Of a stretch of DNA of 64,000 nucleotides, positions 2,712-40,853 are shown one piece after another. Position 1 is the first letter of the stretch, and every line of letters begins with the position of its first letter. The notes under the pieces are model-generated. The model had not been told where the DNA came from, made no database searches, and saw nothing but the letters and a program-made list of their open reading frames with translations. A program made the position numbers and the translations under genes. This stretch comes from Patescibacteria group bacterium (lineage in GTDB: Bacteria; Patescibacteriota; Minisyncoccia; Phycocordibacterales; UBA2100): positions 13,051 to 77,050 of the forward strand of contig JBBTSX010000005.1 in the NCBI GenBank assembly GCA_038064535.1, read 5' to 3'.

Positions 2712-2745
2712 AAGTACAAAAAGCTGCGCAGGCAGCTTTTTGTTA
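2712..2745. terminator. bidirectional terminator-like palindrome CAAAAAGCTGCGCAGGCAGCTTTTTG
   Basis: Perfect hairpin with flanking A and T runs between rsmA (+) and the small minus-strand gene. Confidence 0.55.
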
Positions 2746-3057
2746 CTGGCTTGTCCCAAGCATCGTAATCATGATGCCGGCACGGACGTCGATGGGAAGA
2801 ATTGAGATAATGCAGTAGTAGGGCGCCCCCGCGAGGCCGAGAAGCCACTGACCCGCGTGCGTCGGCGGACCGTTTTTGTACGTCTTTGTCGACGGCGTCC
2901 ATATGTACACGCCGCCGCGCGGCGGGCCGACGTAGGCGATGATGGCGTTGTTGTAGCAGGGGGAAACTTGCGAGGCTTGGCCGCCGAACGGGAAGGCAAG
3001 CGCGAGTGCGGGGAAGAGAAGGGTCACTATCGCGACTGCTGTAGCCGGTGCACGCAT
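2743..3057 (-). CDS. small hypothetical secreted protein (signal peptide MRAPATAVAIVTLLFPALALA)
   Basis: ORF 2743..3084; start re-picked at the internal Met preceding a signal-peptide-like segment. No recognisable homology. Confidence 0.35.
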   Translation of the reverse strand: MRAPATAVAIVTLLFPALALAFPFGGQASQVSPCYNNAIIAYVGPPRGGVYIWTPSTKTYKNGPPTHAGQWLLGLAGAPYYCIISILPIDVRAGIMITMLGTSQ

Positions 3058-3123: not shown

Positions 3124-3246
3124 ACCCCGTTAGAAACCGCGGTCGCTCGGCGGCAATCCCGTTCCAGTCGAACAAACCTATACAAGTATGAGTGACTTTA
3201 ACGACCCGCAAGACTTTCGACCGCGACCTGTTTCTAACGGGGTGGG
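3124..3246. repeat. palindromic intergenic element, copy 2 (ACCCCGTTAGAAACC ... GTTTCTAACGGGGTG) enclosing the start of the 3188 gene
   Basis: Arm variant GAAAC; extended imperfect pairing CGCGGTCG/CGACCGCG inside. Confidence 0.8.
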
Positions 3247-4126
3247 ATGGGCACGCCTACACCCGTACCTATCCGCCCTGATTGCGGCGGGTGCGTTCCT
3301 TGTGTTCGGCATACTCGTGGTGGGGTACCGTGCATCACAACCGCAAGGTGGCAATCTGCAAGTGTGGGGAGGCGGACCGGACGCTTTCCTCAATCCGACA
3401 TCGTATGCACCCGGAGCTACGGTGGGCACACAAATAGAGACCATCGGCGGCGGGAACACGCCGGTATTCAGTGCCCTGCGTCCGCAACAGCAAACCGGCG
3501 AACAAAATGAGACAAGTGGAGGGTTTGATATTTCTCTGTTCATCGCGGGACTTTCTCAACCAAACGCGGACACCGCGGCGGCACCTGTTTCGGGCCGGCC
3601 GGATCTGAGTCTCGCGTATTCTTTCATTCCGAGCGGGCTGGTCGCGACGACGACACCCGGACCGAAGCGAAGCGCACTGCAGGAATCGCTCTATCAATAC
3701 GGCAACGATGTAGGCTCGTACATATCCACATACGAGGCCGCCGGCGCGAATACCGGACAGGTGCTCACGGACCAATTGAACGACCGGCAAAACCCGCAAA
3801 AAGCGCAGGCGGTGCGCGATATCGGCACGGCATTGCAGGCGGCCGGTAAAACCTTACAAGGAATCGAAGCCGTCCCTTCTATTGTGTCTTCGGCGCATAC
3901 CGCTCTCGCGGAGAGTTACATAGAAGCCGGTATCAAGCTCTCGCGCGTGCCCGACGCGCAGAGCGACCAAGACTTCATCACCGCTATACAGGACTACAAC
4001 ACCGCCGCCGAACGGCTCGGGCGCAACTACGTCGCGCTCGCGAACGTTTTCTCGGGTGCAGGTGTGAGATTTGCACCGCAGGACCCGGGGTCGGTGTTCA
4101 ATTTCTCCGGCAATGCCGGACTGTAG
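3188..4126 (+). CDS. hypothetical membrane-anchored protein, first gene of the plus-strand secreted-protein/T4SS-like cluster
   Basis: 312-aa ORF with an N-terminal TM helix (LSALIAAGAFLVFGILVVG). Its start is overlapped by a repeat arm; alternative GTG start near 3238. Confidence 0.55.
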   Translation: MSDFNDPQDFRPRPVSNGVGWARLHPYLSALIAAGAFLVFGILVVGYRASQPQGGNLQVWGGGPDAFLNPTSYAPGATVGTQIETIGGGNTPVFSALRPQQQTGEQNETSGGFDISLFIAGLSQPNADTAAAPVSGRPDLSLAYSFIPSGLVATTTPGPKRSALQESLYQYGNDVGSYISTYEAAGANTGQVLTDQLNDRQNPQKAQAVRDIGTALQAAGKTLQGIEAVPSIVSSAHTALAESYIEAGIKLSRVPDAQSDQDFITAIQDYNTAAERLGRNYVALANVFSGAGVRFAPQDPGSVFNFSGNAGL

Positions 4127-4264
4127 TCGAGAATCCGCGCAACAGGGGAGCGGGGCTCGCCCTGTGAGATAGATACTCGGGGCGCGCAAGCAAAACGATT
4201 CACTCTCCCATTCCGACTGGGCAAACACACGGAAACGCGTTATCTCACGGGGTATACTTGTACT

Positions 4265-5086
4265 GTGCGCGTACTGCAACAAATATTCCGGTCCCCGCTG
4301 GGTGTAACTGCCGCACTTTCCGTGGTGCTCTTGCTCGGCGTCTCGGTCTCCCAGATTTCCTCACTCATGCATCAGAACCGACAGGTGCTCGCATTTGTCG
4401 CCATACCGGCGGCACAGACAGCCGCGGCCGATGGTGCCGACTGGCAACAGGAAATGACATTACTCGGACTGAATACGGAAAACAATCCAGCAGCGACTTC
4501 GACGACCGACAGTATCGCAATGATCGGCCATATTGTAATCGCCGAGATGGTGGGGCAATACGCCGGCCTGCAGGATAGGGGAACGTACACCACGGAGACC
4601 GGACAAAACGCGTCCGCTGACATCGCCGCGAATCTCCGCGCGAACATTTTGTACAAAACATACTCGACGACCGACTTCAAAACAGACACGGACGTTTCCT
4701 ACGACCGCATGCTTACGTACCGGAGTGATTTGCGCGCGGCGCTCGCGCCGCTGTTACAAAACACCGGCGCGGAATTGGAACTGTACGGCAAATATATCGA
4801 AACCGCGGACACGAAGTATCTCGGCCAACTCTCCTCTGCGGCGGCAAATTACCGCGCGGCCGCGGAAGGCGCGGCCGCGCTCACCATCCCGCGCGACGCG
4901 GTAAATTATCACAAAGATATTCTGAACGCGATGGAGAAATTCTCCGCGACGCTTGACCAGATGGCGACGCATGCCGCGGACCCGCTCGCCTCCGCCGCGC
5001 TCTTGCGTACGTTCAACCAAGCCGAAACGGACATGTACACTTCGTTCAACGCGCTTTCCAATTATTACGGCCAGAAGACACCATGA
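4265..5086 (+). CDS. hypothetical secreted/membrane-anchored protein
   Basis: 273-aa ORF with an N-terminal hydrophobic segment. Stop TGA overlaps the ATG of the next palindromic element (ATGA). Confidence 0.5.
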   Translation: MRVLQQIFRSPLGVTAALSVVLLLGVSVSQISSLMHQNRQVLAFVAIPAAQTAAADGADWQQEMTLLGLNTENNPAATSTTDSIAMIGHIVIAEMVGQYAGLQDRGTYTTETGQNASADIAANLRANILYKTYSTTDFKTDTDVSYDRMLTYRSDLRAALAPLLQNTGAELELYGKYIETADTKYLGQLSSAAANYRAAAEGAAALTIPRDAVNYHKDILNAMEKFSATLDQMATHAADPLASAALLRTFNQAETDMYTSFNALSNYYGQKTP

Positions 5087-5220
5087 GCCCCGTTAGAAGT
5101 CAGAACCAGATACGCAATACCCCCGTACGACCCACGGGAGATACTGTAATGCAACATGGAGAGCAGCGGACAAAAAATAATTTACGGAATTATTTTTTGC
5201 CAATGACTTCTAACGGGGTG
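5087..5220. repeat. palindromic intergenic element, copy 3 (GCCCCGTTAGAAGT ... ACTTCTAACGGGGTG) between the 4265 and 5203 genes
   Basis: Arms exact over 13 nt; inner nested palindrome AAAAAATAATT-TACGG-AATTATTTTTT. Confidence 0.8.
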
Positions 5221-6849
5221 AGAATTCAAAGCGGCATACTCATAGCACTGTTTGTCCTTGCGCCCACGCTTGTTTTCGCGCAGTCCGACGGATCTTCGCC
5301 GTCGTTCTCGAGAGAGGGGGTGTTCGGCTGCAGCCAGACCGGTTCATATTCCATGTCGGTCGGCGCGCTCTCGGCGGTGGGCGGAGCTTTCGTGCCGGTC
5401 AACGACGCGGCGGTCACCTTGAATACCGGTTATCTCGTCTACAAGGAGTGCGTCCTGCGCGGCATTGTGGACAGAATGCGCGAAAATGCGACCGCAAATC
5501 TCCAACGACAAATCCTCGTCGCCTACCAACGCGGACGCAACGGCCAGCCGCTCTTTTCGCAGAGTATTCCGCTCGAATCCAGGGCCGTCGCTGACAAAGC
5601 GGTTCTCGACTACACGCAGAGCGGCCAATTCAACACTCTCAACCCGGCGCTCAGGCAAGCCGTTTCGCGTGCGGTGGTGCAAAACTACATGGCCGCGCGC
5701 AACAAGCCCAGCGCGGCGTACGGTTGCTCATACTCCGGCAATCTCAATTCCGTCTACAAAGGCAACCCCGATGGCGGAGCGTGGGCCGGACTCTCCGCAC
5801 TGCAAAATCCGGCGTGCGACCCGATATTTGCCTACGGCATCGCCAACGAGCAGGTCCTCGGCTCCGCCGCCTACGCGGTCAACAACATGCTCACGCGACT
5901 CGAGTGGGACAACGGCAACTATCCCATCATGGGCGTCGACGCGGACGGTAACCCCATCGTGCTCACTCCCGGCTACATCGTGGGGGAAAACGCTCTGCAG
6001 GCACTGCAGACCGGTTTCGACCAGCTCTCGCGGGCGAACGACATCGACCAAATGGTGGGCGCGCTGTTTGCCGGCATTACCTCACAGGTCATCGGCGACA
6101 ACAAAGGTCTCGTCGGTCTCACCAAGTCGACCGGCGGCATACCGAGCTACCTTGATCAGGTGGTGTCGCAGTCCGCGCAGGGACTCCGCAACAGCGCCAT
6201 CAACGCCGGCATCGGAATACTCGTGGCACAACAAAAAATCGAAAGCCAGATACTCGGCTTTGCAAAAATGATTCTCGACAAAATCAAAGCCATTTCGCAA
6301 GCGCTCCAAGTCAAAGAGAACGCCTGCTGGAAACTCGTCGTAAGTAGCGTCTGCTCGTCCTCGCTCGCCTCCGACAACACGTGTACGGATGACGGTGGTA
6401 GTAGGTACAAAGTGGCGACATCGACCTTCCAATTCACGCAAAAAGCGCTGGACGCGTCGCAAGTCGCCGCCTACCAGCGGGTGCACCAGCAGGTCGCGAG
6501 CTCGTCGCAAATCATTCTCACACAAATAAGCGTCCTCATCGCACAGCTCACTGACACATCGTCGTATACCGCCCAGCTCGCCGCGCTTCAGGCGCTCGAC
6601 AGGCTCGCCAACGATGGTATTGTATTCCACACGCCGCAGGACGTGACGAACGAGCAGAGCGCGGCCGGTACGCTCGTCGGTCAAAACGGCGGCTCGGGCA
6701 CGCTCGACCAGCTTGTCACCGACACCGTGGCGGCGTGGGCGGATTCGACCAACACCAAGACCGGATGGTGCAACGTCACCAGACAGCCAGTCGTGGATGC
6801 TTGGAAAGACTGTTGGAGAGAGGGGAGCACCTCATGCCTATGGCCGTAA
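5203..6849 (+). CDS. hypothetical large secreted protein (signal peptide MTSNGVRIQSGILIALFVLAPTLVFA)
   Basis: ORF track gives 5083..6849. The start is re-picked at 5203 because the first 40 codons lie inside a palindromic element and a signal peptide begins at 5203. Confidence 0.55.
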   Translation: MTSNGVRIQSGILIALFVLAPTLVFAQSDGSSPSFSREGVFGCSQTGSYSMSVGALSAVGGAFVPVNDAAVTLNTGYLVYKECVLRGIVDRMRENATANLQRQILVAYQRGRNGQPLFSQSIPLESRAVADKAVLDYTQSGQFNTLNPALRQAVSRAVVQNYMAARNKPSAAYGCSYSGNLNSVYKGNPDGGAWAGLSALQNPACDPIFAYGIANEQVLGSAAYAVNNMLTRLEWDNGNYPIMGVDADGNPIVLTPGYIVGENALQALQTGFDQLSRANDIDQMVGALFAGITSQVIGDNKGLVGLTKSTGGIPSYLDQVVSQSAQGLRNSAINAGIGILVAQQKIESQILGFAKMILDKIKAISQALQVKENACWKLVVSSVCSSSLASDNTCTDDGGSRYKVATSTFQFTQKALDASQVAAYQRVHQQVASSSQIILTQISVLIAQLTDTSSYTAQLAALQALDRLANDGIVFHTPQDVTNEQSAAGTLVGQNGGSGTLDQLVTDTVAAWADSTNTKTGWCNVTRQPVVDAWKDCWREGSTSCLWP

Positions 6850-9392
6850 GTATGACTTCAGCTCATCAAAAGACGGGGGTTATTGTGGCCAGCTGCATCA
6901 TCACACTGCTGACTATCATCCTCTGGTTGCCCGGAACAGCAAGCGCCGCAGCTAGTGCATGTCCACTCAACGGCAGATTGAACACGGACACCGGTGCATG
7001 CACCGCGCCCAGCGGGATTGTATATGTGTACGCGGGAGACAGTGCGCCAACGGGCTTTGGCTGTGCTCAAGGATTTTCTCTCTGGCAAATACAAAGCGGG
7101 GGTACGGTTGGTGGCGGGAGCATGTTAGACCCCGCAACCGGAAATAGTTATCAATGCTTTAACACCGATGACGGTTCTGCTTCAACGGAACCGCCGACAG
7201 GGAAAGGAAAAGTTGTAACACCCGGTACAACTTCATGTGAAGGAGCGACGAACCAAATAATTAACCTGCCCGTGTGTATATTCCGCGCCGCGATGGCGGG
7301 CCTCGGGTCTGTCCTGATCACGCTCTCGGCATGGCTTCTCCAGGTGGCAGGCATTGTGTTCAATTGGCTTTTGTATTACACGGTCGTCGCGTTTGGTGCC
7401 GAGAATGGATTTTTAACTCCCAAGGTCCTTGACGCCATCAACGCCACATGGACAGTCTTTCGTGATATCGCCAACATCCTCATCATCGGTTTGTTCACCT
7501 TTATCGCTATTTCCACCATTCTAGGTAATCACGAATTCGGGGCAAAAAAAATGCTTGCCAAAGCGCTCATCATTGCGGTTCTCATCAACTTTAGTCTGTT
7601 ATTCACAAAGATGATTATCGACGGCTCCAACTTCTTCGCCTATCAGTTCTACAACGCAGCTGGGGGCCTAAAGGGAAATAGCGCCTCCCCCGTCGGGGAG
7701 CTCAGCAGTACACAATCTGTTGTTACCGACAAGGCCATCGAATTCAAACAAGACGGTATCGCCGGTAAATTTATTAATTACCTCGGCGTTACGAGTATAG
7801 GTAACACGTTCAACACGCTCAAGACAGGGGCGGATAATGTGAACAACGGATGGGTAGCCATCCTTCACGGTGTCTTTTCGGCAACATTGTTACTCGGTGT
7901 CGCACTTGTCTTGCTCTATGGCAGTTTCTTGCTGGTGAGTCGGGCAATACTTATTGTTTTCTTGCTTATTACATCATCGCTTGCGTTCGCGTCTTATCTC
8001 CTGCCCGTTTCAATGCAGGGATCATATGGGTGGGGCACGTGGTGGAATAGCCTTCTCAAGTCCGCACTCTTCGCTCCGCTTCTCATGATGTTCCTTTGGG
8101 TAACCATGAGCCTCGCGGACAAGCTACGCCCAGCCGAAGGGTCTCTTGGCGCGCTAATCAACGACCCGACGAATGCGGGGAATATGAGTGCGCTTTTCGG
8201 ATACATCATCATTCTCGGACTCCTTTTTGCCTCATTCAAACTATCGAGTAGTTTCGCTACCTCTATCACGGGCTTCAACTTTGCCGCGATGATCCCCGCA
8301 CTCGGTCTCGGGGCAATCGCCGGTATCGGCGGATTCCTCGGACGACAGACGGTCGGCCGCGCCGGGCTTGGCATTAGCCAGGGCCTGCAAAACCGCTCAA
8401 AAACTACCGACAATGCTTTTGCAAAACGCATGTATGACTTTGGCGCACAGCGATTTAAGGGCGTTGCGGGTCGTGATTTCAATTTGATGCGCACCGGTTT
8501 CGGCGCGGCCGTTGCCGGCACCGCGGGCAAGAAAGTTGATGACTTGGTAGGAAAGGAGCTGAAGGGCTTCGAAGGAACACAAAAAGCGTTCTTGAAGCGC
8601 ACCGGTGAAGCGGCACAGCGCATGGCATTGAGCGCCGACGAGAAAAAGGAAATAAAGGAAAAGGGTATCGACCAGGCGCTCAAAGAAAACGCCGGTCTCG
8701 CACAGCATTATGCTGAATCAGAAAAAGCACAAAAAGAAAACGAGGAGTTGGTCAAGGTCTTGGGTCGCGACAAGGACGCGACGGCGCAAAGCTTCGGCGA
8801 AGCTATAAAAGACCTGGAGACAAAGCTGATCACTCACGAGCGAACGAGAGACGCCCTCACTGCGGGCACAAGCGACCACGGCGAGGCGACAAGGCGGGTC
8901 GCTGAGACGGAGCGGGAGCTCGCCGAAACTCGCCGACGTGCGAACGAACAGATGCGTGAGCAAGGACAGCGAATTAAAGAGGCGAGCGCCGCGACGCAAC
9001 GCGCAGGACGAATGTTCAAAGATGCCGCTGCCGACGCCGAGACTGCCGCGCGAGCAACAGGCAAAATTCCGGCCGCAGCATATAAGGATGTGGGAGATAT
9101 CGCAAAAGAAAATATCCAATCGAGTCTTACGGCAATGCTGCTTCATTCTACCGGCCTGACGTCGGCGAGCCGTGCCAAGCTTGCCACGAAAGGCGGGAAA
9201 GAGGCCGGGAAGATGGCCGAACAGCACCGCTTCAAGGAGAAATATGGAGATGCCTTTAAAGAAATGACGAAAGACGACCATGCGGCTGAACACAAAGAAG
9301 AGAAGCCGAGCGGAGCGCCAGCAGCACACACACCTGCACCCGAAGAGCACACCGCACCGCCGAGCCCGGGAGGCGGACACGGGCGCGTCTAA
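6834..9392 (+). CDS. polytopic membrane protein, VirB6/TrbL-like T4SS channel component with a long charged C-terminal extension
   Basis: Signal peptide, a Cys-containing extracellular N-domain, at least 6 TM helices, then a Lys/Glu-rich coiled-coil tail. Directly upstream of PrgI-like and VirB4 genes. Start re-picked after the upstream stop at 6849. Confidence 0.55.
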   Translation: MPMAVSMTSAHQKTGVIVASCIITLLTIILWLPGTASAAASACPLNGRLNTDTGACTAPSGIVYVYAGDSAPTGFGCAQGFSLWQIQSGGTVGGGSMLDPATGNSYQCFNTDDGSASTEPPTGKGKVVTPGTTSCEGATNQIINLPVCIFRAAMAGLGSVLITLSAWLLQVAGIVFNWLLYYTVVAFGAENGFLTPKVLDAINATWTVFRDIANILIIGLFTFIAISTILGNHEFGAKKMLAKALIIAVLINFSLLFTKMIIDGSNFFAYQFYNAAGGLKGNSASPVGELSSTQSVVTDKAIEFKQDGIAGKFINYLGVTSIGNTFNTLKTGADNVNNGWVAILHGVFSATLLLGVALVLLYGSFLLVSRAILIVFLLITSSLAFASYLLPVSMQGSYGWGTWWNSLLKSALFAPLLMMFLWVTMSLADKLRPAEGSLGALINDPTNAGNMSALFGYIIILGLLFASFKLSSSFATSITGFNFAAMIPALGLGAIAGIGGFLGRQTVGRAGLGISQGLQNRSKTTDNAFAKRMYDFGAQRFKGVAGRDFNLMRTGFGAAVAGTAGKKVDDLVGKELKGFEGTQKAFLKRTGEAAQRMALSADEKKEIKEKGIDQALKENAGLAQHYAESEKAQKENEELVKVLGRDKDATAQSFGEAIKDLETKLITHERTRDALTAGTSDHGEATRRVAETERELAETRRRANEQMREQGQRIKEASAATQRAGRMFKDAAADAETAARATGKIPAAAYKDVGDIAKENIQSSLTAMLLHSTGLTSASRAKLATKGGKEAGKMAEQHRFKEKYGDAFKEMTKDDHAAEHKEEKPSGAPAAHTPAPEEHTAPPSPGGGHGRV

Positions 9393-9397
9393 CACAT

Positions 9398-10024
9398 ATG
9401 AACGACGACAAGGAATACGACGATTTGATAAAAGAGCAGTTCAAAAAACTGCCGCGCGTCGTGCAGGAAGCAATCGTGTCGGCCGACGTCGAGAAGCACC
9501 TGCGTGAGCTTGCGGAGACACATAAACTGCATCTCGACCAATGGACCGCTCTCGAAAACGAAGTGCAGATGACGCTTCTCGGCATCGACGATTCCGGCGA
9601 GCTCATGCAAAACATCAGAGACAAGGTGCACGTACCCGAAGAAACTGCAAAAGCACTCGTACAAAGTATCTCGGAGGTCGTATTCGAGCCAATCAGACAG
9701 GAGCTTGAGCGACAGCTGGAACATCCCGGTGCTGTCGCGAAGGCGACGAGCGGGGTGGAGGACATGCGCACACGCATCCTTGCCGACGCATCGGAAAATC
9801 AGCCGGTAGTCGTAAGCCTGCAGCCGGTAGAAAAAAAGAGTCCGGTTCCTGCTACTGGCTACGAGCTACAAGCCACGGGCTCCGTGGTAGCCGCCACACC
9901 ACCCGCACCCGCACCAACCGTGAAGGTGGAACGCGCTCCCGCCGCACCCCCCTCGTATGTTTCAGCGCCCAGTCACGAGCGAAAAACAGTAGAAGGGGAC
10001 CCGTATAGAGAACAAATCGAATAA
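9398..10024 (+). CDS. hypothetical acidic protein, T4SS-cluster associated
   Basis: 208-aa ORF in the same strand and cluster; Pro/Ala-rich C-terminus. Confidence 0.5.
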   Translation: MNDDKEYDDLIKEQFKKLPRVVQEAIVSADVEKHLRELAETHKLHLDQWTALENEVQMTLLGIDDSGELMQNIRDKVHVPEETAKALVQSISEVVFEPIRQELERQLEHPGAVAKATSGVEDMRTRILADASENQPVVVSLQPVEKKSPVPATGYELQATGSVVAATPPAPAPTVKVERAPAAPPSYVSAPSHERKTVEGDPYREQIE

Positions 10025-10065
10025 CAGCAGGGCCGCGTGCATGCGCTTGGTATACTTATAGAGCC

Positions 10066-10566
10066 ATGCAATTCCAAGTTCCTCAATTTATAGAAGTCGA
10101 AGACAAGATTTTCGGGCCCCTGACCTTCAGGCAGTTCATTTTTATCGCCGGAGGACTCGGAATGGCCTACGTACTGTGGCGATTACTGCCCATTTATTTC
10201 GCCGCGCCGCTCATCCTCGGGGTAGGAGCGCTCGCGGCGGCGCTTGCGTTCTTCCAATTCAACGGCCGCCCGTTTATCATCGCGCTTGAGAATGGTTTTT
10301 ACTACATAATCCGCTCGAAATTGTACCTTTGGAACAACGCTAACAAGAAACGGGCGGTGAAGACAGCCGCAGTCGCCACGAGGAACGATGTGTACATCCC
10401 CAAGATTTCCGACAGCAAACTGCATGAGCTCGCATGGAGCCTCGACATCAAAGAACGTATCGCCGCCGGCACCGCGGGGGACGACGAGCGCGGTAGCGCA
10501 CTCACCGGTGTCCGCACGCCAAAAGAAATCCTGTCGCACATGAGCACACGTACGGTCACGCAATAA
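10066..10566 (+). CDS. PrgI-like small membrane protein (VirB3 analogue of Gram-positive-type T4SS)
   Basis: N-terminus MQFQVPQFIEVEDKIFGPLTFRQFIFIAGG followed by two TM helices is typical of the PrgI family. Positioned just upstream of VirB4. Confidence 0.55.
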   Translation: MQFQVPQFIEVEDKIFGPLTFRQFIFIAGGLGMAYVLWRLLPIYFAAPLILGVGALAAALAFFQFNGRPFIIALENGFYYIIRSKLYLWNNANKKRAVKTAAVATRNDVYIPKISDSKLHELAWSLDIKERIAAGTAGDDERGSALTGVRTPKEILSHMSTRTVTQ

Positions 10567-10569
10567 CCT

Positions 10570-11238
10570 ATGGCAGAAACTCCAATCATGACGCCGCGCG
10601 CAAACGCCAAGTCGACACAGGACTTCGTGCCGATTTCCGAAGTACGCGATGGCGTCGTGGTCCTCAAAGACGGCGGACTGCGCGCGATCCTGCTCGCGTC
10701 GAGTATCAACTTCGCACTCAAGAGCGAGGATGAGCAAACCGCGTTCATCGTGCAATTCCAAAATTTCCTCAACTCTCTCGACTTTTCGGTGCAAATATTC
10801 GTGCAGTCGCGCATGCTGGACATCCGTCCGTACGTCGCGACACTCGAAGCCGCATACAAGGAACAGCTCGACGACCTCATGCGTATCCAAATCCGCGAAT
10901 ATATCGAATTCATCAAGAGTTTCACCGAGGCCGCCAATATCATGACGAAAAACTTCTTCGTCGTCGTGCCGTATTCGCCCGCGGTCATCACGAAGCGCGG
11001 TGGTGCAAGCGCGCTGAATCCGTTCGGCAAAAAACAGACGGCGAGCGAGGCAGACCACTCATTCGAGGAGCAGGTGTCCCAGCTCGAGCAACGCATATCT
11101 ATCGTCCAGCAGGGCCTCGTGCGTACCGGTGTGCGCACCGTGCAACTCGGTACCGAAGAAGCAATAGAGCTACTCTACAAAATGTTCAACCCCGGCGAGG
11201 AGGGAAAACCGATGCCCGTAGAGACAGGGAATAGGTGA
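10570..11238 (+). CDS. hypothetical T4SS-associated protein
   Basis: 222-aa ORF between the PrgI-like and VirB4 genes. Contains a FVPISEVRDGVVVLKDGGLRAILL motif reminiscent of T4SS assembly proteins. Confidence 0.5.
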   Translation: MAETPIMTPRANAKSTQDFVPISEVRDGVVVLKDGGLRAILLASSINFALKSEDEQTAFIVQFQNFLNSLDFSVQIFVQSRMLDIRPYVATLEAAYKEQLDDLMRIQIREYIEFIKSFTEAANIMTKNFFVVVPYSPAVITKRGGASALNPFGKKQTASEADHSFEEQVSQLEQRISIVQQGLVRTGVRTVQLGTEEAIELLYKMFNPGEEGKPMPVETGNR

Positions 11239-11319
11239 TAGGGATTAGGGAATAGTAAAATACAATACACCACCATGCCCTCACTACAACCTACAACCTA
11301 CAACCTATAACCTATTCCT

Positions 11320-13239
11320 ATGGCATTCAGCGACCTTCTTCCGTTCAAGAAAAAAACCGCCGCAGGACCGGATATTTTGCCGGTACTACCCGAAGAAATC
11401 TACCAGACGGGGGTACTCGACCTGCAAGACGTCATCGCGCCGCACGCGCTCAAAGTAAACTCGCGCGAACTCGACTTGGGCGAGAAAATCGCGCGCACCT
11501 TCTTCGTCATCTCATACCCCAGATTCCTCACGACGGGATGGTTTGCCCCCATCATCAACATGGACAAGGTCATCGACATCTCCATCTTCGTACACCCGAT
11601 GGATACCAATGAAATGCTCCGTAAATTCCAGAAAAAAGTCGCCGAGGTGCAGAGCCAGATTTCGACACGCGAGCAGAAGGGGATGGTCCGCGACCCGATG
11701 CTCGACACGGCGTACTCCGACCTCGAACAGTTGCGCGACAGCCTTCAACAGGCGCAGGAGCGCATTTTTGACGTCGGACTCTATCTCACCATCTACGGCA
11801 ACACGCGCGAGGAAATCGACAAAGTGGAGAGCGATGTACGTTCCATTCTCGAGTCGCGTCTCGTGTACATCCGACCCGCGCTCTTCCAGCAGGAACAGGG
11901 CTTCCGCTCCGTCCTGCCGCTGTGCACCGACGAGCTCGACGTGCACACGAAGCTCAATTCCGCGCCGCTCTCGTCCATCTTTCCGTTCATCTCGTTCGAC
12001 CTCACGTCGGACCGCGGCATTCTCTACGGCATCAACCGTCACAATTCGTCTCTGATTCTCTTCGACCGTTTCTCGCTCGAAAACTATAACTCCGTGACAT
12101 TCGCAAAATCCGGCGCCGGCAAAAGCTACACGACAAAACTCGAGATTTTGCGCTCTCTCATGTTTGATACCGAGGTCATCGTCATCGACCCCGAGCGCGA
12201 ATACGAATACCTCGCCGAGACCGTCGGCGGGCGCTACTTCAACATTTCGCTTTCCTCCGAGCACCACATTAATCCTTTCGACCTCGCCATTCCGCGCGAA
12301 GATGAAAATCCGAGCGACGTGCTACGCAACAACATCATCACGCTCGTGGGGCTCTTCCGCATCATGCTCGGCGGGCTCACGCCGGAGGAAGACGCTGTTA
12401 TCGACAAGGCGATAACGGAAACCTACGCGCTCAAAGACATCACCTCGGATACCAACTTCGCGCAGGTCGAGCCGCCGCTTCTCTCCGACTTCGAGCTTGT
12501 ACTCTCCGGCATGGAAGGGAGCGAATCTCTCGTGCAACGTCTCTCCAAATACACCAAGGGCACGTGGTCGGGATTCATGAACCGCCCGACCAATGTTGAC
12601 ATGAACAAAAAACTCGTCGTCTTCTCGGTGCGCGACATGGAAGACGACCTCAAGCCGGTCGCGATGTACATCATTACGCACCACATCTGGAATCAGGTGC
12701 GCAAAGAGCTCCGCAAGCGCCTCCTCGTCATCGACGAGGCGTGGTGGATGATGCGTAGCGAAGACACCGCGTCGTTCCTCTTCTCCATCGCAAAGCGCGG
12801 CCGCAAATACTACCTCGGCATTTCGACCATCACGCAGGACGTCTCGGACTTCTTGAATTCCCCGTACGGTATCCCGATGATAACCAACTCTTCCATCCAG
12901 CTTCTTTTGCGTCAGTCACCGACATCGGTCGACCTTGTGCAGAGCACGTTCAAACTCTCCGACGAGGAGAAATACCTACTGCTCGAGAGTGACGTGGGGG
13001 AGGGCATATTCTTCGCCGGTCTCAAGCACGTCGCGCTCAAGGTCATCGCCTCGTATACCGAAGACCAAATCATCACCTCGGACCCGTCGCAAATTCTCGC
13101 AATCAAAAAAGCGAAGCAGGATCTCGAAAAATCGAGTGATGTCCCTGCGCCGGTGCGCCCCATCGCTCCTCACGCGCCGGGTACCGACACCGCGCCCGCG
13201 CCGCAAGCTCCTTCAAGCAACGCCTTACGGGAGGTATGA
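11320..13239 (+). CDS. virB4: type IV secretion ATPase VirB4/TraC/PrgJ-like
   Basis: Walker A AKSGAGKSYTT. Gram-positive VirB4 N-domain pattern KIARTFFVISYPRFLTTGWFAPIINMDKVIDISIFVHP. Walker B-like LLVIDEAWWMM. Confidence 0.85.
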   Translation: MAFSDLLPFKKKTAAGPDILPVLPEEIYQTGVLDLQDVIAPHALKVNSRELDLGEKIARTFFVISYPRFLTTGWFAPIINMDKVIDISIFVHPMDTNEMLRKFQKKVAEVQSQISTREQKGMVRDPMLDTAYSDLEQLRDSLQQAQERIFDVGLYLTIYGNTREEIDKVESDVRSILESRLVYIRPALFQQEQGFRSVLPLCTDELDVHTKLNSAPLSSIFPFISFDLTSDRGILYGINRHNSSLILFDRFSLENYNSVTFAKSGAGKSYTTKLEILRSLMFDTEVIVIDPEREYEYLAETVGGRYFNISLSSEHHINPFDLAIPREDENPSDVLRNNIITLVGLFRIMLGGLTPEEDAVIDKAITETYALKDITSDTNFAQVEPPLLSDFELVLSGMEGSESLVQRLSKYTKGTWSGFMNRPTNVDMNKKLVVFSVRDMEDDLKPVAMYIITHHIWNQVRKELRKRLLVIDEAWWMMRSEDTASFLFSIAKRGRKYYLGISTITQDVSDFLNSPYGIPMITNSSIQLLLRQSPTSVDLVQSTFKLSDEEKYLLLESDVGEGIFFAGLKHVALKVIASYTEDQIITSDPSQILAIKKAKQDLEKSSDVPAPVRPIAPHAPGTDTAPAPQAPSSNALREV

Positions 13240-14282
13240 AACGGCTCGCGCTCGCAGTCGTTGTTATCGTATGCGCGGTCGCTCCCGCGTATCTGCCCGC
13301 GCAGGCGCGCGCCCAGTTCTCGATTCCGGGCGCGGAAAGCGTTCTCTCTATTTCGTTCTCTCCACAGTATCCGGCCCCGCAGAGCACTGTCAGACTCACT
13401 CTGCAGAGTTCGCTGTACGACCTCGGCTCGAGCTCTGTTACATGGACGGTCAACGGGCAAGAGGTGGCTCAAGGAGACGCGGTAACGTTCATCGACGTGA
13501 AGACAGGCTCGCTCGGAAGCAAGACCGAGGTACAGGCCGACATCACAAGTGCGGGCGGCACGGCTTTTGCTACCGCGACCGTGGTTCCGACCTCCATCGA
13601 CCTCCTGTGGGAATCCGACTCGTACGTCCCTCCTTTTTACAACGGTCGCGCACTGCCGTCCGCGGGTTCTCGCGTGCACCTTGTCGCGCTCACACATTTT
13701 GTGCGTCCGGACGGCGGAGAAATCCCCGCGAACCAGATTGTTTTCACATGGACAAGGGATAGCGAAGTTCTGGGCAACCTCTCCGGCCGCGGTAAATCAT
13801 CGATAACAGTCGACGGACCGACCCTCTTCGGAACGGAGACGATTGTAGTGGAAGCGGCGTCCGTCGACGGAAGCATTGCGGGGCAGGCACTTCTGCGCAT
13901 TCCCGATACGGAGCCGAGGCTTATGCTGTACGAAGACCATCCGCTGTTCGGGGTGCTCTACCATCAGGCGCTTGGCGTCACCACGTTCGTGCCGAAAAAC
14001 GAAATGTCGTTCATCGCAATTCCGTACTTCGCCTCCGCCGTCTCCTCCGGCGACACGGGTTTGCAATACGAGTGGCAGGTCAATCAAAGTTCCGTCACCA
14101 CCAACGCGGCGTACAGCAACGAAATAACCGTCAACGCCGCCTCGTCTACCGGACTTATGGCACTCATCAATCTCTCGCTCACGCATGTGTCGAATTATTT
14201 CCTGAGTGCTGCGGGCTCGTGGAGCGTTACGTTCAACAAGAGTAGCGCCGGTTCATCCGGCGGGGACGTCTTTCATCAATAA
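13236..14282 (+). CDS. hypothetical secreted protein (signal peptide)
   Basis: 348-aa ORF, ATGA overlap with virB4. N-terminal MKRLALAVVVIVCAVAPAYLPAQA. Confidence 0.55.
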   Translation: MKRLALAVVVIVCAVAPAYLPAQARAQFSIPGAESVLSISFSPQYPAPQSTVRLTLQSSLYDLGSSSVTWTVNGQEVAQGDAVTFIDVKTGSLGSKTEVQADITSAGGTAFATATVVPTSIDLLWESDSYVPPFYNGRALPSAGSRVHLVALTHFVRPDGGEIPANQIVFTWTRDSEVLGNLSGRGKSSITVDGPTLFGTETIVVEAASVDGSIAGQALLRIPDTEPRLMLYEDHPLFGVLYHQALGVTTFVPKNEMSFIAIPYFASAVSSGDTGLQYEWQVNQSSVTTNAAYSNEITVNAASSTGLMALINLSLTHVSNYFLSAAGSWSVTFNKSSAGSSGGDVFHQ

Positions 14283-14288
14283 CGTCGT

Positions 14289-15506
14289 ATGCCAGCTTCA
14301 CACCATTTATTCAGGTACGCGGTTGCCGCCGTCATCGTGATGGTGCTCGGTGGGCTTCTCGGTTGGTATGTATTTGTGCGTTCGCAGGTCAGGACGACAC
14401 AGGCAAACGACAGCGCGCGCGGCTTCGGCACGGCCGCATCGTTCGGGTCGCCTGCAGGAAGCACGTACACAAACTCCGCCGGGTCTGTTCCTTCGACTGA
14501 CATACAGTCCGCGTCCGGTAATCCGGCGCCGCGTCTCTGGAAAGTAACCGCGACGCCGGTTGCCGGTGCGGGCTTTGCCGCGTCTTCGACCCAACTGTAC
14601 TTCGCCGAGCGTTCGTCGGGCAATGTCTTACTCGCGGACCCGTCCGTATCCTCGGTGACCCGCCTCACGAATACATTGTTCCCGAAGGTATACGACGCGC
14701 TATTCGCATCCGACGGCTCCGTCTTGCTCCGCTCGGCGACGGACGCGGGCATTGTCACCACCTACGCCGGCACGATAAGCACGACGACTGCCGAGGGTCC
14801 CGTACCGCTCGCCGGTACCTATTTGCCGCAACACATCAAAGCGGTGAGCGTGCGCTCTCCGCAACAACTGTTCTTTCTCGTGGCTACGCCCACGGGCGGC
14901 ACTGCCGGTGTCACGGCAAATTGGAAGGGTGCGTCGCAAAAACCCGTCTTCGCTTCCACGCTACAGCAATGGCGTGTGTGGTGGCTCTCCGACGGACGCA
15001 TGTATGTCGCGCAACAGCCGTCCGACGGTATCATGGGGTACGCATTCACGCTCAAGGGTGGCGCACTGCAAAGCCTCGTGAGCGCCCCCGGTCTCTCGAT
15101 ATTGCCGCGCACCGGTTCTACCGCGCTCATCTACAGCAGTTCGGCCGGCGGCGTAAACCTGTTCGGGCAGACTTCGGCAAGCACCACGCCGGTGCGGTTT
15201 ACCGTTCGTACTCTTGCCGAGAAGTGTGTCTGGGCCCCCGGCAAAGATCTCGTTGCCTACTGTGCAGTGCCGCAGGTTCTGCCTACGAGAGCCGGTTATA
15301 TGGAAGAATGGTACCGCGGCGCGACGCACACGTCGGATGCGTGGTGGAAGGTAGACGTATCCGCCGGCACCGCACAAAGCCTGTTCACACCTGACTCCGG
15401 CACCTCGTTCGACGTTGAGCGTCCTGCCATTGACGGCAACGGCAGTTATATCGCTTTCATGAACGCCGCCGACAAATCACTCTGGATGCTTCGCATAACA
15501 CCATGA
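14289..15506 (+). CDS. hypothetical membrane-anchored extracellular protein
   Basis: 405-aa ORF with one N-terminal TM helix; overlaps the next gene by 4 nt. Confidence 0.55.
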   Translation: MPASHHLFRYAVAAVIVMVLGGLLGWYVFVRSQVRTTQANDSARGFGTAASFGSPAGSTYTNSAGSVPSTDIQSASGNPAPRLWKVTATPVAGAGFAASSTQLYFAERSSGNVLLADPSVSSVTRLTNTLFPKVYDALFASDGSVLLRSATDAGIVTTYAGTISTTTAEGPVPLAGTYLPQHIKAVSVRSPQQLFFLVATPTGGTAGVTANWKGASQKPVFASTLQQWRVWWLSDGRMYVAQQPSDGIMGYAFTLKGGALQSLVSAPGLSILPRTGSTALIYSSSAGGVNLFGQTSASTTPVRFTVRTLAEKCVWAPGKDLVAYCAVPQVLPTRAGYMEEWYRGATHTSDAWWKVDVSAGTAQSLFTPDSGTSFDVERPAIDGNGSYIAFMNAADKSLWMLRITP

Positions 15507-15928
15507 CATCGCTTCGTTCACACGTTCGTGTCGCCCTCGCGTTACTCGCGTTTTGTATCGTATTCGTCGCCGCGGCTGTACACGCAGAGGCACCGCTGTG
15601 CGACGGGAAGGGTTTCTGTGCGCTTGCGATTCCTCCCACCTCGTCAAAACTGGGACAGCTCTATGGCACGACAAGCCTCGCCGGATTTCTCAACGGCCTC
15701 TTTACCGCCGCAATTTCCATCGGCGCGATACTCGCGGTGCTCAGAATTGCCTACGCGGGATATGAATACATGACGAGCGATGCGTGGGGGAACAAAGCGC
15801 GCGCAAAAGAAATCATCGGTGACGTTGTCCTCGGATTGATGCTCCTCCTCGGCACGTACCTGATTCTCAACCAAATCAATCCGCAACTGCTCAACTTAAA
15901 TATTCTGCAAAACCTCGGGGGCAAGTAG
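15503..15928 (+). CDS. T4SS pilin-like small protein (signal peptide plus two TM helices)
   Basis: 141 aa with a cleavable signal peptide, a conserved Cys pair and two hydrophobic helices. Architecture matches conjugative/CPR-type T4SS pilins. Confidence 0.45.
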   Translation: MTSLRSHVRVALALLAFCIVFVAAAVHAEAPLCDGKGFCALAIPPTSSKLGQLYGTTSLAGFLNGLFTAAISIGAILAVLRIAYAGYEYMTSDAWGNKARAKEIIGDVVLGLMLLLGTYLILNQINPQLLNLNILQNLGGK

Positions 15929-15933
15929 ACCGG

Positions 15934-16437
15934 TTACTCCGTCGAATACTTGATGACGACGCGGCGATTTCGCCCCTCTCCTTGTGATTCTGTTTTTACG
16001 TTCGGTGCATCTTGAAGCGTTGTGTGAATAATGAGGCGCTCATAGGCACTCATCGGCGTGAGCTCCACGTCGTATTGAAAAGAGCGTGCGCGCTCCGCGA
16101 GCATGAGCGCTTTGGTCTGCAAATCTTTTATCTGCTTCGCGCGGTAGTCGTTGATGTCAACGAGGAACATCGGACTATCCGCTCCCTCTACGAGCGGTTG
16201 CCGCTTTTCCAAAATCTTTTTCACGAGCATGTCGAGCGCGTAAATGGTGTCGCCGTGCGCGCCGATGAGCGTACGCGCATCATCGGTCTCTATCGTGAAA
16301 ATGGTCTGGCCGGCGATTTCGGTGCGGGTGACACCCTTGTAGGAAACACCGAGCGCGGTCAACATCTCTTTGAGGATTGTTTCGACAGTGTCGGCGTACG
16401 TGTCCACCCCGTTAGAAGCTGACGTTGATTGGGTCAT
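15934..16437 (-). CDS. jag: RNA-binding protein Jag/KhpB (KH + R3H domains)
   Basis: Position downstream of yidC. C-terminal R3H-like region. ORF track start 16491 lies inside a palindromic element; start re-picked at the Met at 16437. Confidence 0.8.
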   Translation of the reverse strand: MTQSTSASNGVDTYADTVETILKEMLTALGVSYKGVTRTEIAGQTIFTIETDDARTLIGAHGDTIYALDMLVKKILEKRQPLVEGADSPMFLVDINDYRAKQIKDLQTKALMLAERARSFQYDVELTPMSAYERLIIHTTLQDAPNVKTESQGEGRNRRVVIKYSTE

Positions 16438-16488
16438 AAAAAATTGTTGTCCCACCGAGAGTCGCTCCGGGGAGCTTCTAACGGGGTC
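16406..16488. repeat. palindromic intergenic element, copy 4 (ACCCCGTTAGAAGCT ... AGCTTCTAACGGGGT) between yidC and jag, enclosing the jag start
   Basis: 18-nt perfect arms including the ATG/CAT. Confidence 0.85.
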
Positions 16489-16532
16489 CATTGGGGCACT
16501 ATACGCTATTTTCCCGCGCCGTGCGAATACCC

Positions 16533-17273
16533 CTATGTTGAGCCCTTTTTTGAGTGTCCAAAGCGGCGACCGGTCATGAGCTCCTGCGCAATCATAAAGA
16601 TGTTGCCGGTAATCCAGTAGAGCGGCGCGGCTGCGGCTATGAAGTAGGCGATAACTCCGACCATCACAGGAAGCATGTAGCGGGCCTGCAAATCGAAGCT
16701 TCTCGCCATGTCGTTGCTGAACGAGGCTTCGGTCGCCGTCTTTTCTCCGCGCGGCCCCATGGAGAGGCGCGTGTAGATGAACTGCGCGACGACCGCGAGC
16801 ACGGCAAGCACGAGCGAGCGACTCGACATGTTGATGAGACCGAGAAATTCCATATTCACGGCATCCGGTACTGTGACGAACGGGTAGAGGATGACTGTGT
16901 GTATTTCGGGCAATCCGCCGAGCGCGAATACCCAGTAGAGGCCGAGCAGTATGGGGAGTTGAATGAGAATGAGCAAAAAGCCGGAGAACGGTTTGACCCC
17001 CCGCTCACGGTACAGTGCAAAGATTGCCTTGCTTTGCTCTTCGGGCTTATCTTTGAGTCTTTTCTTGAGCTCTTCGACCTCGGGAGCGACCTCTTTCATT
17101 TTCATCTGTGTCTTGATGGCGCTCCTCGATAGCGGATAGAGCACGATGCGGACAATAATGGTCACGATGATGACGGCGATACCGACATCGTGAGTCGGTA
17201 GAATGCCTACAAAATAAACAAGCCCGTTGTATATCGGGTTGTAGACGAGCGTGTCGAATACGGCGCTTATCAT
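16533..17273 (-). CDS. yidC: membrane protein insertase YidC (short form)
   Basis: Multi-TM protein in the conserved rpmH-rnpA-yidC-jag arrangement. Confidence 0.85.
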   Translation of the reverse strand: MISAVFDTLVYNPIYNGLVYFVGILPTHDVGIAVIIVTIIVRIVLYPLSRSAIKTQMKMKEVAPEVEELKKRLKDKPEEQSKAIFALYRERGVKPFSGFLLILIQLPILLGLYWVFALGGLPEIHTVILYPFVTVPDAVNMEFLGLINMSSRSLVLAVLAVVAQFIYTRLSMGPRGEKTATEASFSNDMARSFDLQARYMLPVMVGVIAYFIAAAAPLYWITGNIFMIAQELMTGRRFGHSKKGST

Positions 17274-17318
17274 AATTCAACGATTGTATACCGTATCCCG
17301 CCGCGCGTACACAGTAAG

Positions 17319-17600
17319 CTAACAGCGGCTGATGAGCGCAGCGATATCGTCGCGGATATCCGCGAACGAGGCTCCGGCGGCATCACGCTTGGCGACGAAT
17401 ACATACGTGCCGGCGGGAGCGACGCCGAGATGCTTGAGAAGGGAAGCGCGGAAGCGGCGTTTGATGAGATTGCGGTCGACGGCTTTCGCGGCGACTTTCT
17501 TGGAAACGACTATGCCGAAGCGCGCGGTTTTGCCGCCGGAGGTGGCCGAAACGGAGAAAAAAGCTCCGCTCACGCGACGAGCGGCTCGAGTGTTCCTCAT
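17319..17600 (-). CDS. rnpA: ribonuclease P protein component RnpA (short)
   Basis: Motif ARFGIVVSKKVAAKAVDRNLIKRRFR. Start re-picked at the Met just after the rpmH stop; ORF track 17319..17807 over-extends into rpmH. Confidence 0.75.
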   Translation of the reverse strand: MRNTRAARRVSGAFFSVSATSGGKTARFGIVVSKKVAAKAVDRNLIKRRFRASLLKHLGVAPAGTYVFVAKRDAAGASFADIRDDIAALISRC

Positions 17601-17632
17601 TTCTGCTCCGGTGAGACGGTGCTTGGGAGGCA

Positions 17633-17767
17633 TTACACGGAAAGGCGGGCGCGACCTTTGCGACGGCGGCGCTGTAAGAGCTTGCGGCCTGTCGGCGTGG
17701 AGCTCCTCACGCGGAACCCATGCGTCTTCTGGCGCTTGCGCTTTTTCGGCTGGTACGTGCGTTTCAT
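17633..17767 (-). CDS. rpmH: 50S ribosomal protein L34
   Basis: Hand translation of the minus strand: [44 protein letters not shown]. Not in the ORF track because it is shorter than the cutoff. Confidence 0.9.
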
Positions 17768-40828: not shown

Positions 40829-40853
40829 TGTCCCTGTATTGTACACTGGCGGG

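Follow-up and report, generated by a model that had tools for sequence, protein, structure and literature searches.

A probable type IV secretion system of the Paceibacteria form encoded beside dnaA in a Patescibacteria chromosome

Background

What kind of machine do the eleven co-directional genes lying between ksgA and dnaA in a Patescibacteria genome encode, and what could the cell use it for? The question is raised by a 64-kb stretch of DNA (hereafter the window, in whose numbering all positions are given) from a 143-kb contig deposited as 'Patescibacteria group bacterium', where the plus-strand genes at 3188-15928 include parts of a type IV secretion system (T4SS). A preliminary description, made from the sequence, saw in them a minimal T4SS in the style of Gram-positive or CPR (candidate phyla radiation) bacteria, used for DNA uptake or cell-cell attachment rather than for plasmid conjugation. 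We consider it very probable that the cluster is a chromosomal, vertically inherited T4SS typical of Patescibacteria, in its Paceibacteria/Kaiserbacteria form, with a role as conduit or pilus towards a host. The genes are called here, in their order, g1 to g5, prgI, trsD, virB4, g9, g10 and the pilin gene.

Patescibacteria represent a large share of bacterial diversity, and the way in which they exploit their hosts is largely unknown. T4SSs occur in about 80% of their genomes (Quinonero-Coronel et al. 2025, PMC12102498), so that the cluster of the window is ordinary in kind. It is not a new kind of system; what it offers is a clean Paceibacteria case with sharp limits, where four parts receive confident names, seven conserved partners can be narrowed to testable fold classes or motifs, and the surfaces that vary between near-identical genomes can be pinpointed. 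Such assignments would improve the annotation of thousands of similar genomes.

Results and discussion

Core components of the secretion system

The identity of the system is carried by a VirB4-family ATPase of 639 residues, encoded at 11320-13239 (plus strand, as are all genes of the cluster) and corresponding to the C-terminal P-loop part of the family. The protein matches the NCBIfam model conju_CD1110 with E=1.4e-109 and 367.5 bits, the curated cut-off being 325, and the TraG P-loop family of Pfam (P-loop_TraG) with E=5.9e-24. Its translation contains the Walker A motif AKSGAGKS at residues 262-269 and a Walker B-like LLVIDE at residue 468. The preliminary description had named a VirB4 with Walker A at 11320 and would have changed its interpretation had this open reading frame (ORF) failed to match VirB4 profiles; the CD1110 score upholds the name. 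When compared with PrgJ of pCF10, the protein aligns only to residues 228-772 (25% identity, E=7e-41), and since the alignment starts at residue 228, we regard it as a VirB4 without the usual N-terminal ~225 residues.

A free-standing equivalent of this N-terminal domain is the cytoplasmic, 222-residue product of 10570-11238, previously counted among the unknown proteins. It matches NCBIfam TrsD/TraD (E=1.4e-7, under the curated cut-off), and its residues 11-194 match positions 3-233 of several full-length VirB4 models, all under their curated cut-offs (VirB4_plasma 8e-10, VirB4_CagE 2.4e-6, CD1110 3.7e-6). By these profile matches, a monoderm-type VirB4 (class MPF-FATA, family CD1110) is split here into a TrsD-like N-domain protein and a P-loop protein.

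Two further components can be named. The gene at 10066-10566 encodes a protein of the PrgI family with two transmembrane (TM) helices, the VirB3 analogue proposed before: it matches Pfam PF12666 with E=1.5e-12 and 48.3 bits (cut-off 27) and bears the public name 'PrgI family protein'. The last gene, at 15503-15928, encodes a VirB2-like T4SS pilin with a signal peptide and two TM helices. It passes the cut-off of Pfam PF18895 (T4SS_pilin, 27.7 vs 26.6 bits), and ten of its homologues match this family too, in agreement with the small pilin-like protein with two TM helices that had been noticed. A hidden Markov model made from the homologues finds no second pilin copy in the window.

No relaxase, VirD4 or VirB11 was seen in the 64 kb when all ORF translations were read and the large unknown proteins were scanned with Pfam, and tblastn with PcfC and PcfG of pCF10, a weak test, revealed no coupling protein or relaxase in the window or within +/-10 kb of the locus in 80 relatives. 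The absence of all three from the window, already pointed out in the preliminary description, thus holds for 64 kb of the 143-kb contig. VirB8 and hydrolase families gave no match in Pfam and NCBIfam scans, each library being run on 10 of the 11 cluster proteins, and PrgK and PrgL gave none in tblastn. What the profiles of g1, g2, g3, g9 and g10 matched among PDB sequences was helical, Ig-like (immunoglobulin-like) or propeller, not VirB8 or hydrolase.

Conservation and position in the genome

A scan of one genome per species returned at least 570 VirB4 relatives, and the locus counts and medians in this text refer to the best 80. Their VirB4 proteins are 73-98% identical to that of the window and all come from metagenome-assembled genomes (MAGs) of Patescibacteria, many labelled Kaiser-, Nomura-, Taylor-, Campbell-, Adler- or Wolfebacteria or Paceibacterota, and many others bearing generic or automatic names. 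The order uvrD-ksgA-cluster-jag-yidC-rnpA-dnaA-dnaN is kept in most of the 80 species genomes. In the window these neighbours, recognised from their translations, are a uvrD/pcrA-like gene (105-1682), ksgA (1770-2585), jag, yidC and rnpA (15934-17807, minus strand), dnaA (18050-19399) and dnaN (19639-20736). Summed along the window, the GC skew is lowest at 15-21 kb, near rnpA and dnaA, which places the cluster directly beside the probable replication origin; GC content is even over the window, at about 56%, with no compositional island. The PrgI/VirB3 adaptor and the VirB2-like pilin are encoded with VirB4 at a fixed locus beside the probable replication origin. It may be added that, if the origin is near rnpA/dnaA, all eleven T4SS genes would be on the lagging strand and transcribed head-on to replication, which is unusual for highly conserved genes.

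The degree of conservation differs widely among the components. Median identity to the window proteins is 78% for VirB4, 64% for TrsD, 57% for DnaA, 49% for PrgI and 40% for the pilin, and goes down to 33% for g5, 31% for g9, 30% for g3, 29% for g10 and 27% for the VirB6-like product of g4. TrsD is present in 78 of the 80 loci, directly upstream of virB4, PrgI and g9 in 77 each and g10 in 68; for g1 and g2, detection is limited to the ~20 genomes closest to the window. Judged from these identities, VirB4 is under stronger constraint than DnaA, and the exported parts evolve fast. A VirB4 more conserved than DnaA points to strong purifying selection, unlike what would be expected of a decaying or recently acquired mobile element, and together with the fixed place beside dnaA in most of the 80 genomes it argues that the cluster is not a plasmid or integrated conjugative element (ICE) module.

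Gene boundaries and public records

The eleven plus-strand ORFs announced for 3188-15928 were confirmed; they fill this segment with short or overlapping junctions. Both ATGA overlaps noticed previously are present, at 13236 (virB4/g9) and 15503 (g10/pilin); the junctions g3/g4, g4/g5, prgI/trsD and g9/g10 measure 2-6 nt, and wider ones are found at g5/prgI (41 nt), trsD/virB4 (81 nt), g2/g3 (116 nt) and g1/g2 (138 nt). A look-up in public data covered ten of the eleven cluster genes, all but g2 (4265-5086), and a small gene at 2743-3057, and each of these corresponds to a public MAG protein with 100% identity or exact sequence (locus tags AAB480_01045 and AAB480_01050-01100). As the public calls match the cluster ORFs, our boundaries agree with an independent gene caller. 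Among the nine cluster genes whose public names were examined, two are named, as 'PrgI family protein' and 'DUF87 domain-containing protein', and the others are called hypothetical. One boundary had to be revised: the third gene had been started at 5083, where the ORF reads in frame through an inserted palindromic element described below; the public call starts at 5203, most likely the true start of g3.

The conserved block that holds the cluster also includes the small gene at 2743-3057 (minus strand), which is divergent from g1 and encodes a secreted protein of 104 residues that has a signal peptide. In tblastn its product is 100% identical to its counterpart in the nearest genome, Ca. Kaiserbacteria RIFCSPHIGHO2_02_FULL_55_25 (L001), where neighbouring proteins are 81-90% identical, and 51-70% identical in about 18 further loci, so that about 20 genomes keep it at this position, between ksgA and g1. 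Its exact sequence is public as AAB480_01045, within a cluster of 23 members, and a Pfam scan gave no match.

A candidate for VirB6 and the variable surfaces

The gene g4 (6852-9392) encodes a protein of 846 residues which we regard as the best candidate for a VirB6 analogue, homology not being established. It has an N-terminal signal/TM helix, a Cys-containing hypervariable ectodomain (residues ~27-125), a polytopic core (~126-545) and a charged, cytoplasmic coiled-coil tail of ~300 residues; an identical public protein exists (P0001, 100%). An AlphaFold2 model of residues 1-574, built from 54 sequences, has a mean pLDDT of 76, mostly above 85 in the core. Its top PDB matches in Foldseek are TrwI/VirB6 of R388 (8rtd_L, E=0.039, prob 0.94; 8rt9_F; 7o3v_F/G/J), a second fold match to R388 VirB6 having prob 0.89; identity to R388 VirB6 is 13%. 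Like R388 VirB6/TrwI (8rtd, 8rt9, 7o3v), g4 would be a polytopic inner-membrane protein encoded next to VirB3/VirB4; it differs in being three times longer, with the hypervariable N-terminal ectodomain and the coiled-coil tail, and these additions recall the 'extended VirB6' proteins (PMC12857230). With 17,305 representative clusters at E<=1e-3, the family of the core is very large, and the closest 150 listed contain no bridge to TrbL/VirB6 families. We favour the VirB6 assignment because the order of polytopic protein, PrgI and VirB4 parallels prgH-prgI-prgJ of pCF10, and because VirB6 is hard to detect in several Patescibacteria classes (PMC12102498). The earlier label of VirB6/TrbL-like protein with a coiled-coil tail is backed by the polytopic topology, the position and a sub-threshold fold match, and by no sequence profile.

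The comparison with the nearest genome (L001) indicates where this protein varies. The two genomes are 81-89% identical in their aligned DNA segments (mostly 85-89%), and the proteins neighbouring g4 are 73-99% identical (mostly 81-99%). In a context of otherwise ~86% DNA identity, g4 is the one strongly diverged gene (4974-7553 in L001): the membrane core is 72-78% identical and the cytoplasmic tail 35-42%, while the external loop 271-300 falls to 23% and the signal/TM1 helix plus ectodomain, effectively unrelated, to ~20% (19% for the ectodomain). A different kind of variation is seen in the pilin. Homologues elsewhere carry C-terminal extensions of ~40-300 residues with unrelated sequences, some Cys-rich and some coiled-coil; the pilin of the window has no such extension and ends right after the pilin domain. 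The pilin of the nearest genome (14175-14918) is 112 residues longer, ~390 bp being missing in the window relative to it. The hypervariable exposed parts of g4 and the variable pilin tails of the relatives are likely host-facing surfaces, and the g4 ectodomain and loop, together with the pilin tails, are the places to look for host specificity. A guess from motifs that the pilin extensions of two relatives (L013 and L016) are M15/LAS peptidases was rejected, as Pfam gives the pilin domain only.

Accessory proteins

Five products of the cluster are predicted to be secreted or anchored proteins outside the named core, those starting at 3188, 4265, 5203, 13236 and 14289. Six had been counted earlier; the products of 9398 and 10570 are cytoplasmic.

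By hydropathy, g1 (3188-4126) is a bitopic membrane protein with a TM helix at residues 28-46 and a helical C-terminal ectodomain, and g2 (4265-5086, GTG start) is a signal-anchored protein with an ectodomain of the same helical type. A direct BLASTP finds no match between the two, and their relationship is visible by profile-profile comparison only (hhalign probability 97%, E=1e-10 over 157 columns), on which basis they are paralogues. Homologues of g1 were found only in the 17 closest loci, and of g2 in 20-23. No match was obtained for g1 in Pfam, NCBIfam or among natural PDB entries, nor any family match for g2 with Pfam, NCBIfam or the PDB-sequence profile.

The g3 gene (5203-6849) encodes a secreted protein of 548 residues with a signal peptide and ten cysteines, 100% identical to the public call (P0213), and has homologues in 32-34 of the 80 loci. 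Its AlphaFold2 model (pLDDT 77.3) is all-alpha with very long helices, the one at 316-383 covering 68 residues. Foldseek against PDB and BFVD gave nothing at E<=0.001 (best prob 0.51, E=0.036), and the g3 profile retrieved nothing from the PDB sequences. The idea that g3 is a cryptic VirB1-like hydrolase or a VirB5-like protein was rejected, the fold searches in PDB and BFVD having returned no meaningful match.

Between g4 and prgI, g5 (9398-10024) encodes an acidic cytoplasmic protein made of a conserved helical N-domain of ~105 residues, a variable Pro-rich linker and a near-invariant C-terminal DPYRE motif. In the alignment D201, P202, Y203 and E205 are invariant and R204 is kept in at least 90% of the sequences; the motif, DPYRE(P), lies 3-5 residues from the C-terminus and is present in 63 loci. 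At least 763 homologue clusters belong to this family, all unnamed and without Pfam domains, and a search of PDB sequences with g5 gave no match.

The product of g9 (13236-14282), whose start overlaps the virB4 stop, is a secreted protein with a signal peptide and predicted Ig-like beta-sandwich repeats: the family profile matches the Ig-like domains of T4 Hoc (E=1.5e-5), and the homologues weakly match BiPBP_C (10 of 43), Ig_3 and PKD. Finally, g10 (14289-15506) is a bitopic membrane protein with a TM helix at residues 12-30. Its family profile matches 12 distinct TolB sequences with E between 9e-4 and 0.03, and among its homologues PD40 matches three and DPPIV_N one, so that we tentatively assign a TolB-like beta-propeller to the ectodomain.

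Comparison with published systems

The nearest counterparts are the T4SSs of other Patescibacteria. In the published survey, VirB4 of the Patescibacteria clade is nested in the monoderm MPF-FATA class, with TrsD as its most frequent partner, PrgI/VirB3, VirB2-like pilins (unexpected in monoderms) and very few relaxases, and in Paceibacteria and Microgenomatia the T4SS neighbours are dnaA, dnaN, rnpA and ksgA (PMC12102498). The window shares with this clade the MPF-FATA VirB4 with an adjacent TrsD, the PrgI/VirB3, the VirB2-like pilin, the lack of a relaxase or coupling protein nearby, and the location near dnaA, dnaN, rnpA and ksgA. It differs in a VirB6 candidate undetected by any profile, and we found no literature description of proteins such as g1-g3 and the DPYRE protein in Patescibacteria T4SSs. 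The profiles thus support the CPR/Gram-positive style proposed in the preliminary description, whereas the word 'minimal' is misleading, seven further conserved proteins, including TrsD, being encoded.

Functional data come from relatives. In Southlakia epibionticum, the only relative in which genetic tests exist, the T4SS encoded by SEML1_0006-0019 and the pilins within it are indispensable for epibiotic growth (Wang et al. 2023, PMC10633639); this T4SS has no recognisable coupling protein or relaxase (PMC10633639; PMC12857230). Patescibacteria T4SSs are the only ones reported to be essential for the growth of their owner (PMC12857230). Southlakia has an array of six pilin genes whereas the window has one, and downstream of virB4 it encodes a peptidase and a lysozyme, in contrast to the Ig-repeat and probable TolB-like propeller proteins of the window. 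For a Microgenomatia strain in culture, tubes that may be T4SS pili were reported to penetrate the host envelope, and uptake of host RNA was described (2026 preprint, bioRxiv 10.64898/2026.06.21.733656).

Conjugative systems of the MPF-FATA class are more distant. With Prg/Pcf of pCF10 the window shares a VirB4 that aligns to PrgJ and passes the cut-off of the CD1110 family (which also names PrgJ), as well as a PrgI-family gene directly upstream of the VirB4 part and a polytopic protein upstream of prgI, like prgH; with the Trs systems of pGO1/pSK41 it shares a separate small TrsD, as in the pGO1 subclass. Unlike these conjugative T4SSs, the window has no VirD4-type coupling protein, relaxase, PrgK-type hydrolase, PrgL-type VirB8-like protein or PrgB-type adhesin; it has a VirB2-like pilin, otherwise absent from monoderm systems according to the literature, and its system is chromosomal and vertically inherited, not on a mobile element.

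Proposed function and alternative explanations

From these comparisons we infer a pilus or conduit to a host. TrsD and VirB4 would dock via PrgI on a channel formed by the polytopic VirB6-like protein, and the ATPase would extract pilin from the membrane and build from it a tube or pilus that crosses the cell wall. The exported partners, five in number, namely the two helical paralogues, the long-helix protein, the Ig-repeat protein and the probable TolB-like propeller, would form a lineage-specific extracellular scaffold or tip and stand in for VirB8, VirB1 and VirB5, which are not detectable. The apparatus would then contact a host bacterium and move macromolecules, either by protein export or by import of host material such as RNA, and would not serve plasmid conjugation. 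A bolder version, which we hold to be speculative and somewhat unlikely, is that the Paceibacteria T4SS is a distinct sub-architecture, in which g9, g10, g3, g1/g2 and g5 would form a new extracellular and substrate-handling module replacing VirB1, VirB5 and VirB8, the DPYRE protein would be an adaptor or the main translocated substrate, and the VirB6-like ectodomain would set host specificity.

Several observations weigh against the host-conduit interpretation. The essentiality and microscopy data come from Saccharimonadia and Microgenomatia, not from Paceibacteria. No VirB8-like or VirB1-like component was found in the searches described above, the accessory roles are guessed from fold class alone, and the TolB-like assignment of g10 is marginal. 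The gene for a coupling protein may lie in another part of the genome, homologues of type IV coupling proteins being common elsewhere in Patescibacteria genomes (PMC12102498). As to the VirB6 candidate, Pfam and NCBIfam on the g4 protein and Pfam on 33 homologues gave no match, its profile retrieved from PDB sequences only coiled-coil noise due to the tail, hhalign of the core profile with pCF10 PrgH gave prob 0.1, tblastn against 72,556 plasmids found nothing, and none of its fold matches reaches E=0.001, with TM-scores of 0.18-0.35.

The cell-cell attachment suggested in the preliminary description is possible, and the apparatus could be mainly an organelle of adhesion: VirB4 would assemble a VirB2-like pilus, the exported proteins would decorate or cap it, and no substrate would pass. 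A pilin above the Pfam threshold, an Ig-like repeat protein, the lack of a visible coupling protein and the hypervariability of pilin tails and of the VirB6-like ectodomain, as expected of host-binding surfaces, would all suit such an organelle. However, type IV pili already provide adhesion in Saccharibacteria according to the literature, and the window itself encodes a PilB-like ATPase (39137-41422); its T4SS pilin has no tail, and a conserved cytoplasmic g5 with an invariant C-terminal motif suggests recognition at the cytoplasmic face. We therefore judge pure adhesion unlikely, though it is the most serious competitor. The Helicobacter ComB system is a T4SS-related DNA importer whose VirB4-type ATPase works without a relaxase. 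A machine of this sort, or like the archaeal Ced system, could import DNA as a source of nucleotides or for transformation, and DNA uptake was one of the functions suggested in the preliminary description. The window resembles ComB in having no relaxase or coupling protein; a pilin is present, Patescibacteria lack nucleotide synthesis according to the literature, T4SS loci of the class ABY1 adjoin comF, recG and radA (PMC12102498), and CedB, also a VirB4-type ATPase without a relaxase, is weakly matched in NCBIfam. This last match is far under the cut-off of the equivalog NF041017 (37.2 bits vs 700) and covers 71 P-loop residues. Neither the cluster of the window nor those of the 80 loci have a competence gene next to them, as far as the queried genes of the synteny tables go. 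Moreover, in Southlakia a comEC deletion is viable (PMC12857230) but non-competent, the T4SS is essential and transformation needs type IV pili, so that the essentiality of that T4SS does not come from DNA uptake through ComEC. These results speak against the earlier suggestion, and we consider DNA uptake improbable.

Last, the genes might be the transfer module of an ICE, or its decayed remnant, with relaxase and coupling protein encoded elsewhere or lost. VirB4, PrgI and TrsD do belong to conjugation families, and mobile-looking DNA occurs in the operon (the palindromic element here, intervening sequence (IVS)-protein cassettes in relatives). Yet the same locus and gene order beside dnaA are found in most of the 80 species genomes, VirB4 is too conserved relative to DnaA to be decaying, GC content is uniform, tblastn with pCF10 proteins, again a weak test, brought up no integrase, relaxase or coupling protein within +/-10 kb, and relaxases occur in only 103 of 3,035 genomes (PMC12102498). 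An ICE origin is hardly credible on this evidence; the preliminary statement that the cluster does not serve plasmid conjugation agrees with its fixed place near dnaA and with the lack of a relaxase or coupling protein nearby.

Operon signals and the trsD-virB4 hairpin

Of 21 genes, 8 have a -10-like TATAxT box whose end lies 3-11 nt ahead of the start codon, compared with a background of 0.8% (P ~2e-12); the -10-only pattern was first spotted by eye and then tested on these 21 genes. The boxes precede ksgA (1770), g1 (3188), g2 (4265) and prgI (10066) on the plus side, and the genes starting at 3057, 16491 (jag), 17273 (yidC) and 24210 (ruvC) on the minus strand. In g2 a TATACT box ends 6 nt before the GTG start, and in prgI an extended -10-like box, TGGTATACT, lies 9 nt upstream. 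This spacing suggests that leaderless or near-leaderless mRNAs are common in the source organism, and the boxes at the starts of g1, g2 and prgI suggest leaderless-type transcripts from three transcription units: g1, g2-g5 and prgI-pilin. A scan for consensus promoters and terminators found no more sites than in shuffled sequences, and the Rfam matches of the window were four tRNAs, none of them within the cluster.

The 81-nt spacer between trsD and virB4, together with the trsD stop codon, forms a long imperfect hairpin at 11227-11319 (plus strand; inverted repeat I3), whose 3' arm consists of successive CTACAAC-like heptamers and stops 1 nt short of the virB4 ATG. Its predicted fold has -24.9 kcal/mol (z=-2.4), and 3 of 200 shuffles were as good. 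Hairpins at the same position, with unrelated arm sequences, are found in four of the five close relatives folded (L001, L002, L003 and L013, z from -3.5 to -4.6), whereas the spacer of the fifth (L007) folds no better than shuffles (z=-0.87); the spacer of one more genome, L017, is almost identical to that of L013. In most other genomes trsD and virB4 are 1-16 nt apart, and in five (L032, L061, L063, L072 and L073) a 23S_rRNA_IVP gene (PF05635), bounded by inverted repeats, occupies the spacer. Altogether, 11 PF05635 genes occur in the 80 loci, at the trsD-virB4 junction or before prgI (L001, L003, L013 and others). The hairpin is probably the scar of an IVS-like insertion, and it could act as a putative RNase III site or as a translational block.

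A palindromic MITE-like element

A palindromic element whose termini are CCCCGTTAGAA / TTCTAACGGGG, 54-129 nt long and with variable interiors, occurs seven times in the window and resembles a miniature inverted-repeat transposable element (MITE). Its copies are located at 1700-1793, 3126-3241, 5089-5217, 16408-16485, 38434-38530, 45803-45897 and 61820-61873, and 18 core matches are present in the window against 3.3 expected. Two of the copies touch the T4SS genes. Within the one at 3126-3241 lie the -10-like box of g1, its start codon and its first ~19 codons; the one at the g2/g3 junction (5089-5217) is flanked by TGAG direct repeats, is an insertion relative to the nearest genome and supplies the start codon at 5203. 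Of the other copies, one spans the ksgA start and one is found at the 5' end of jag. Insertion has kept the reading frame at g2/g3 (135 nt) and in jag (81 nt), and KsgA, g1, g3 and Jag all have the right arm translated, as (A/T/V)SNG(V/A). The nearest genome lacks the four copies of the syntenic stretch.

A scan of metagenomes found at least 120 further stretches with the element (L082-L201). Identical 4-nt direct repeats, mostly TNNA, flank 93 of 146 copies, compared with a mean of 18.7 and a maximum of 28 in permutations, and such repeats are the mark left by target-site duplication. In 30 of 123 copies an ORF has its start within the element and runs outwards across an arm, 25 of the 30 being in the SNG-encoding frame. 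From its sequence, the element looks like a MITE family able to equip the gene downstream of the insertion with a promoter-like box and a start codon. Our literature search found no description of it.

Other features of the window

At a distance of 23 kb from the T4SS genes, 39137-41422 (minus strand) encodes a type IV pilus ATPase of PilB/GspE-like type, with the Walker A motif GPTGSGKTT read from the translation; the upstream part of this ORF is probably non-coding. Large secreted proteins without a family are encoded at 29460-31709, 32118-34478, 34504-37056, 44499-45800, 45947-47671 and 56339-58984. By eye, two pairs look like tandem paralogues: 29460-31709 and 32118-34478, which share C-terminal HExxH-like motifs (HELSH, HETLH), and 44499-45800 and 45947-47671, which have their last ~200 residues in common. 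The product of 34504-37056 has a weak C-terminal PDZ match in Pfam. A protein with a PaaX_M/Cas2-like domain (55291-56145, plus strand, 6.6e-19) and an HNH endonuclease (59665-60168, plus strand, 8.7e-7) lie among tRNA genes in a lower-GC stretch (52-56 kb), and a Usg-like protein is encoded at 27347-27733 (minus strand, 1e-20).

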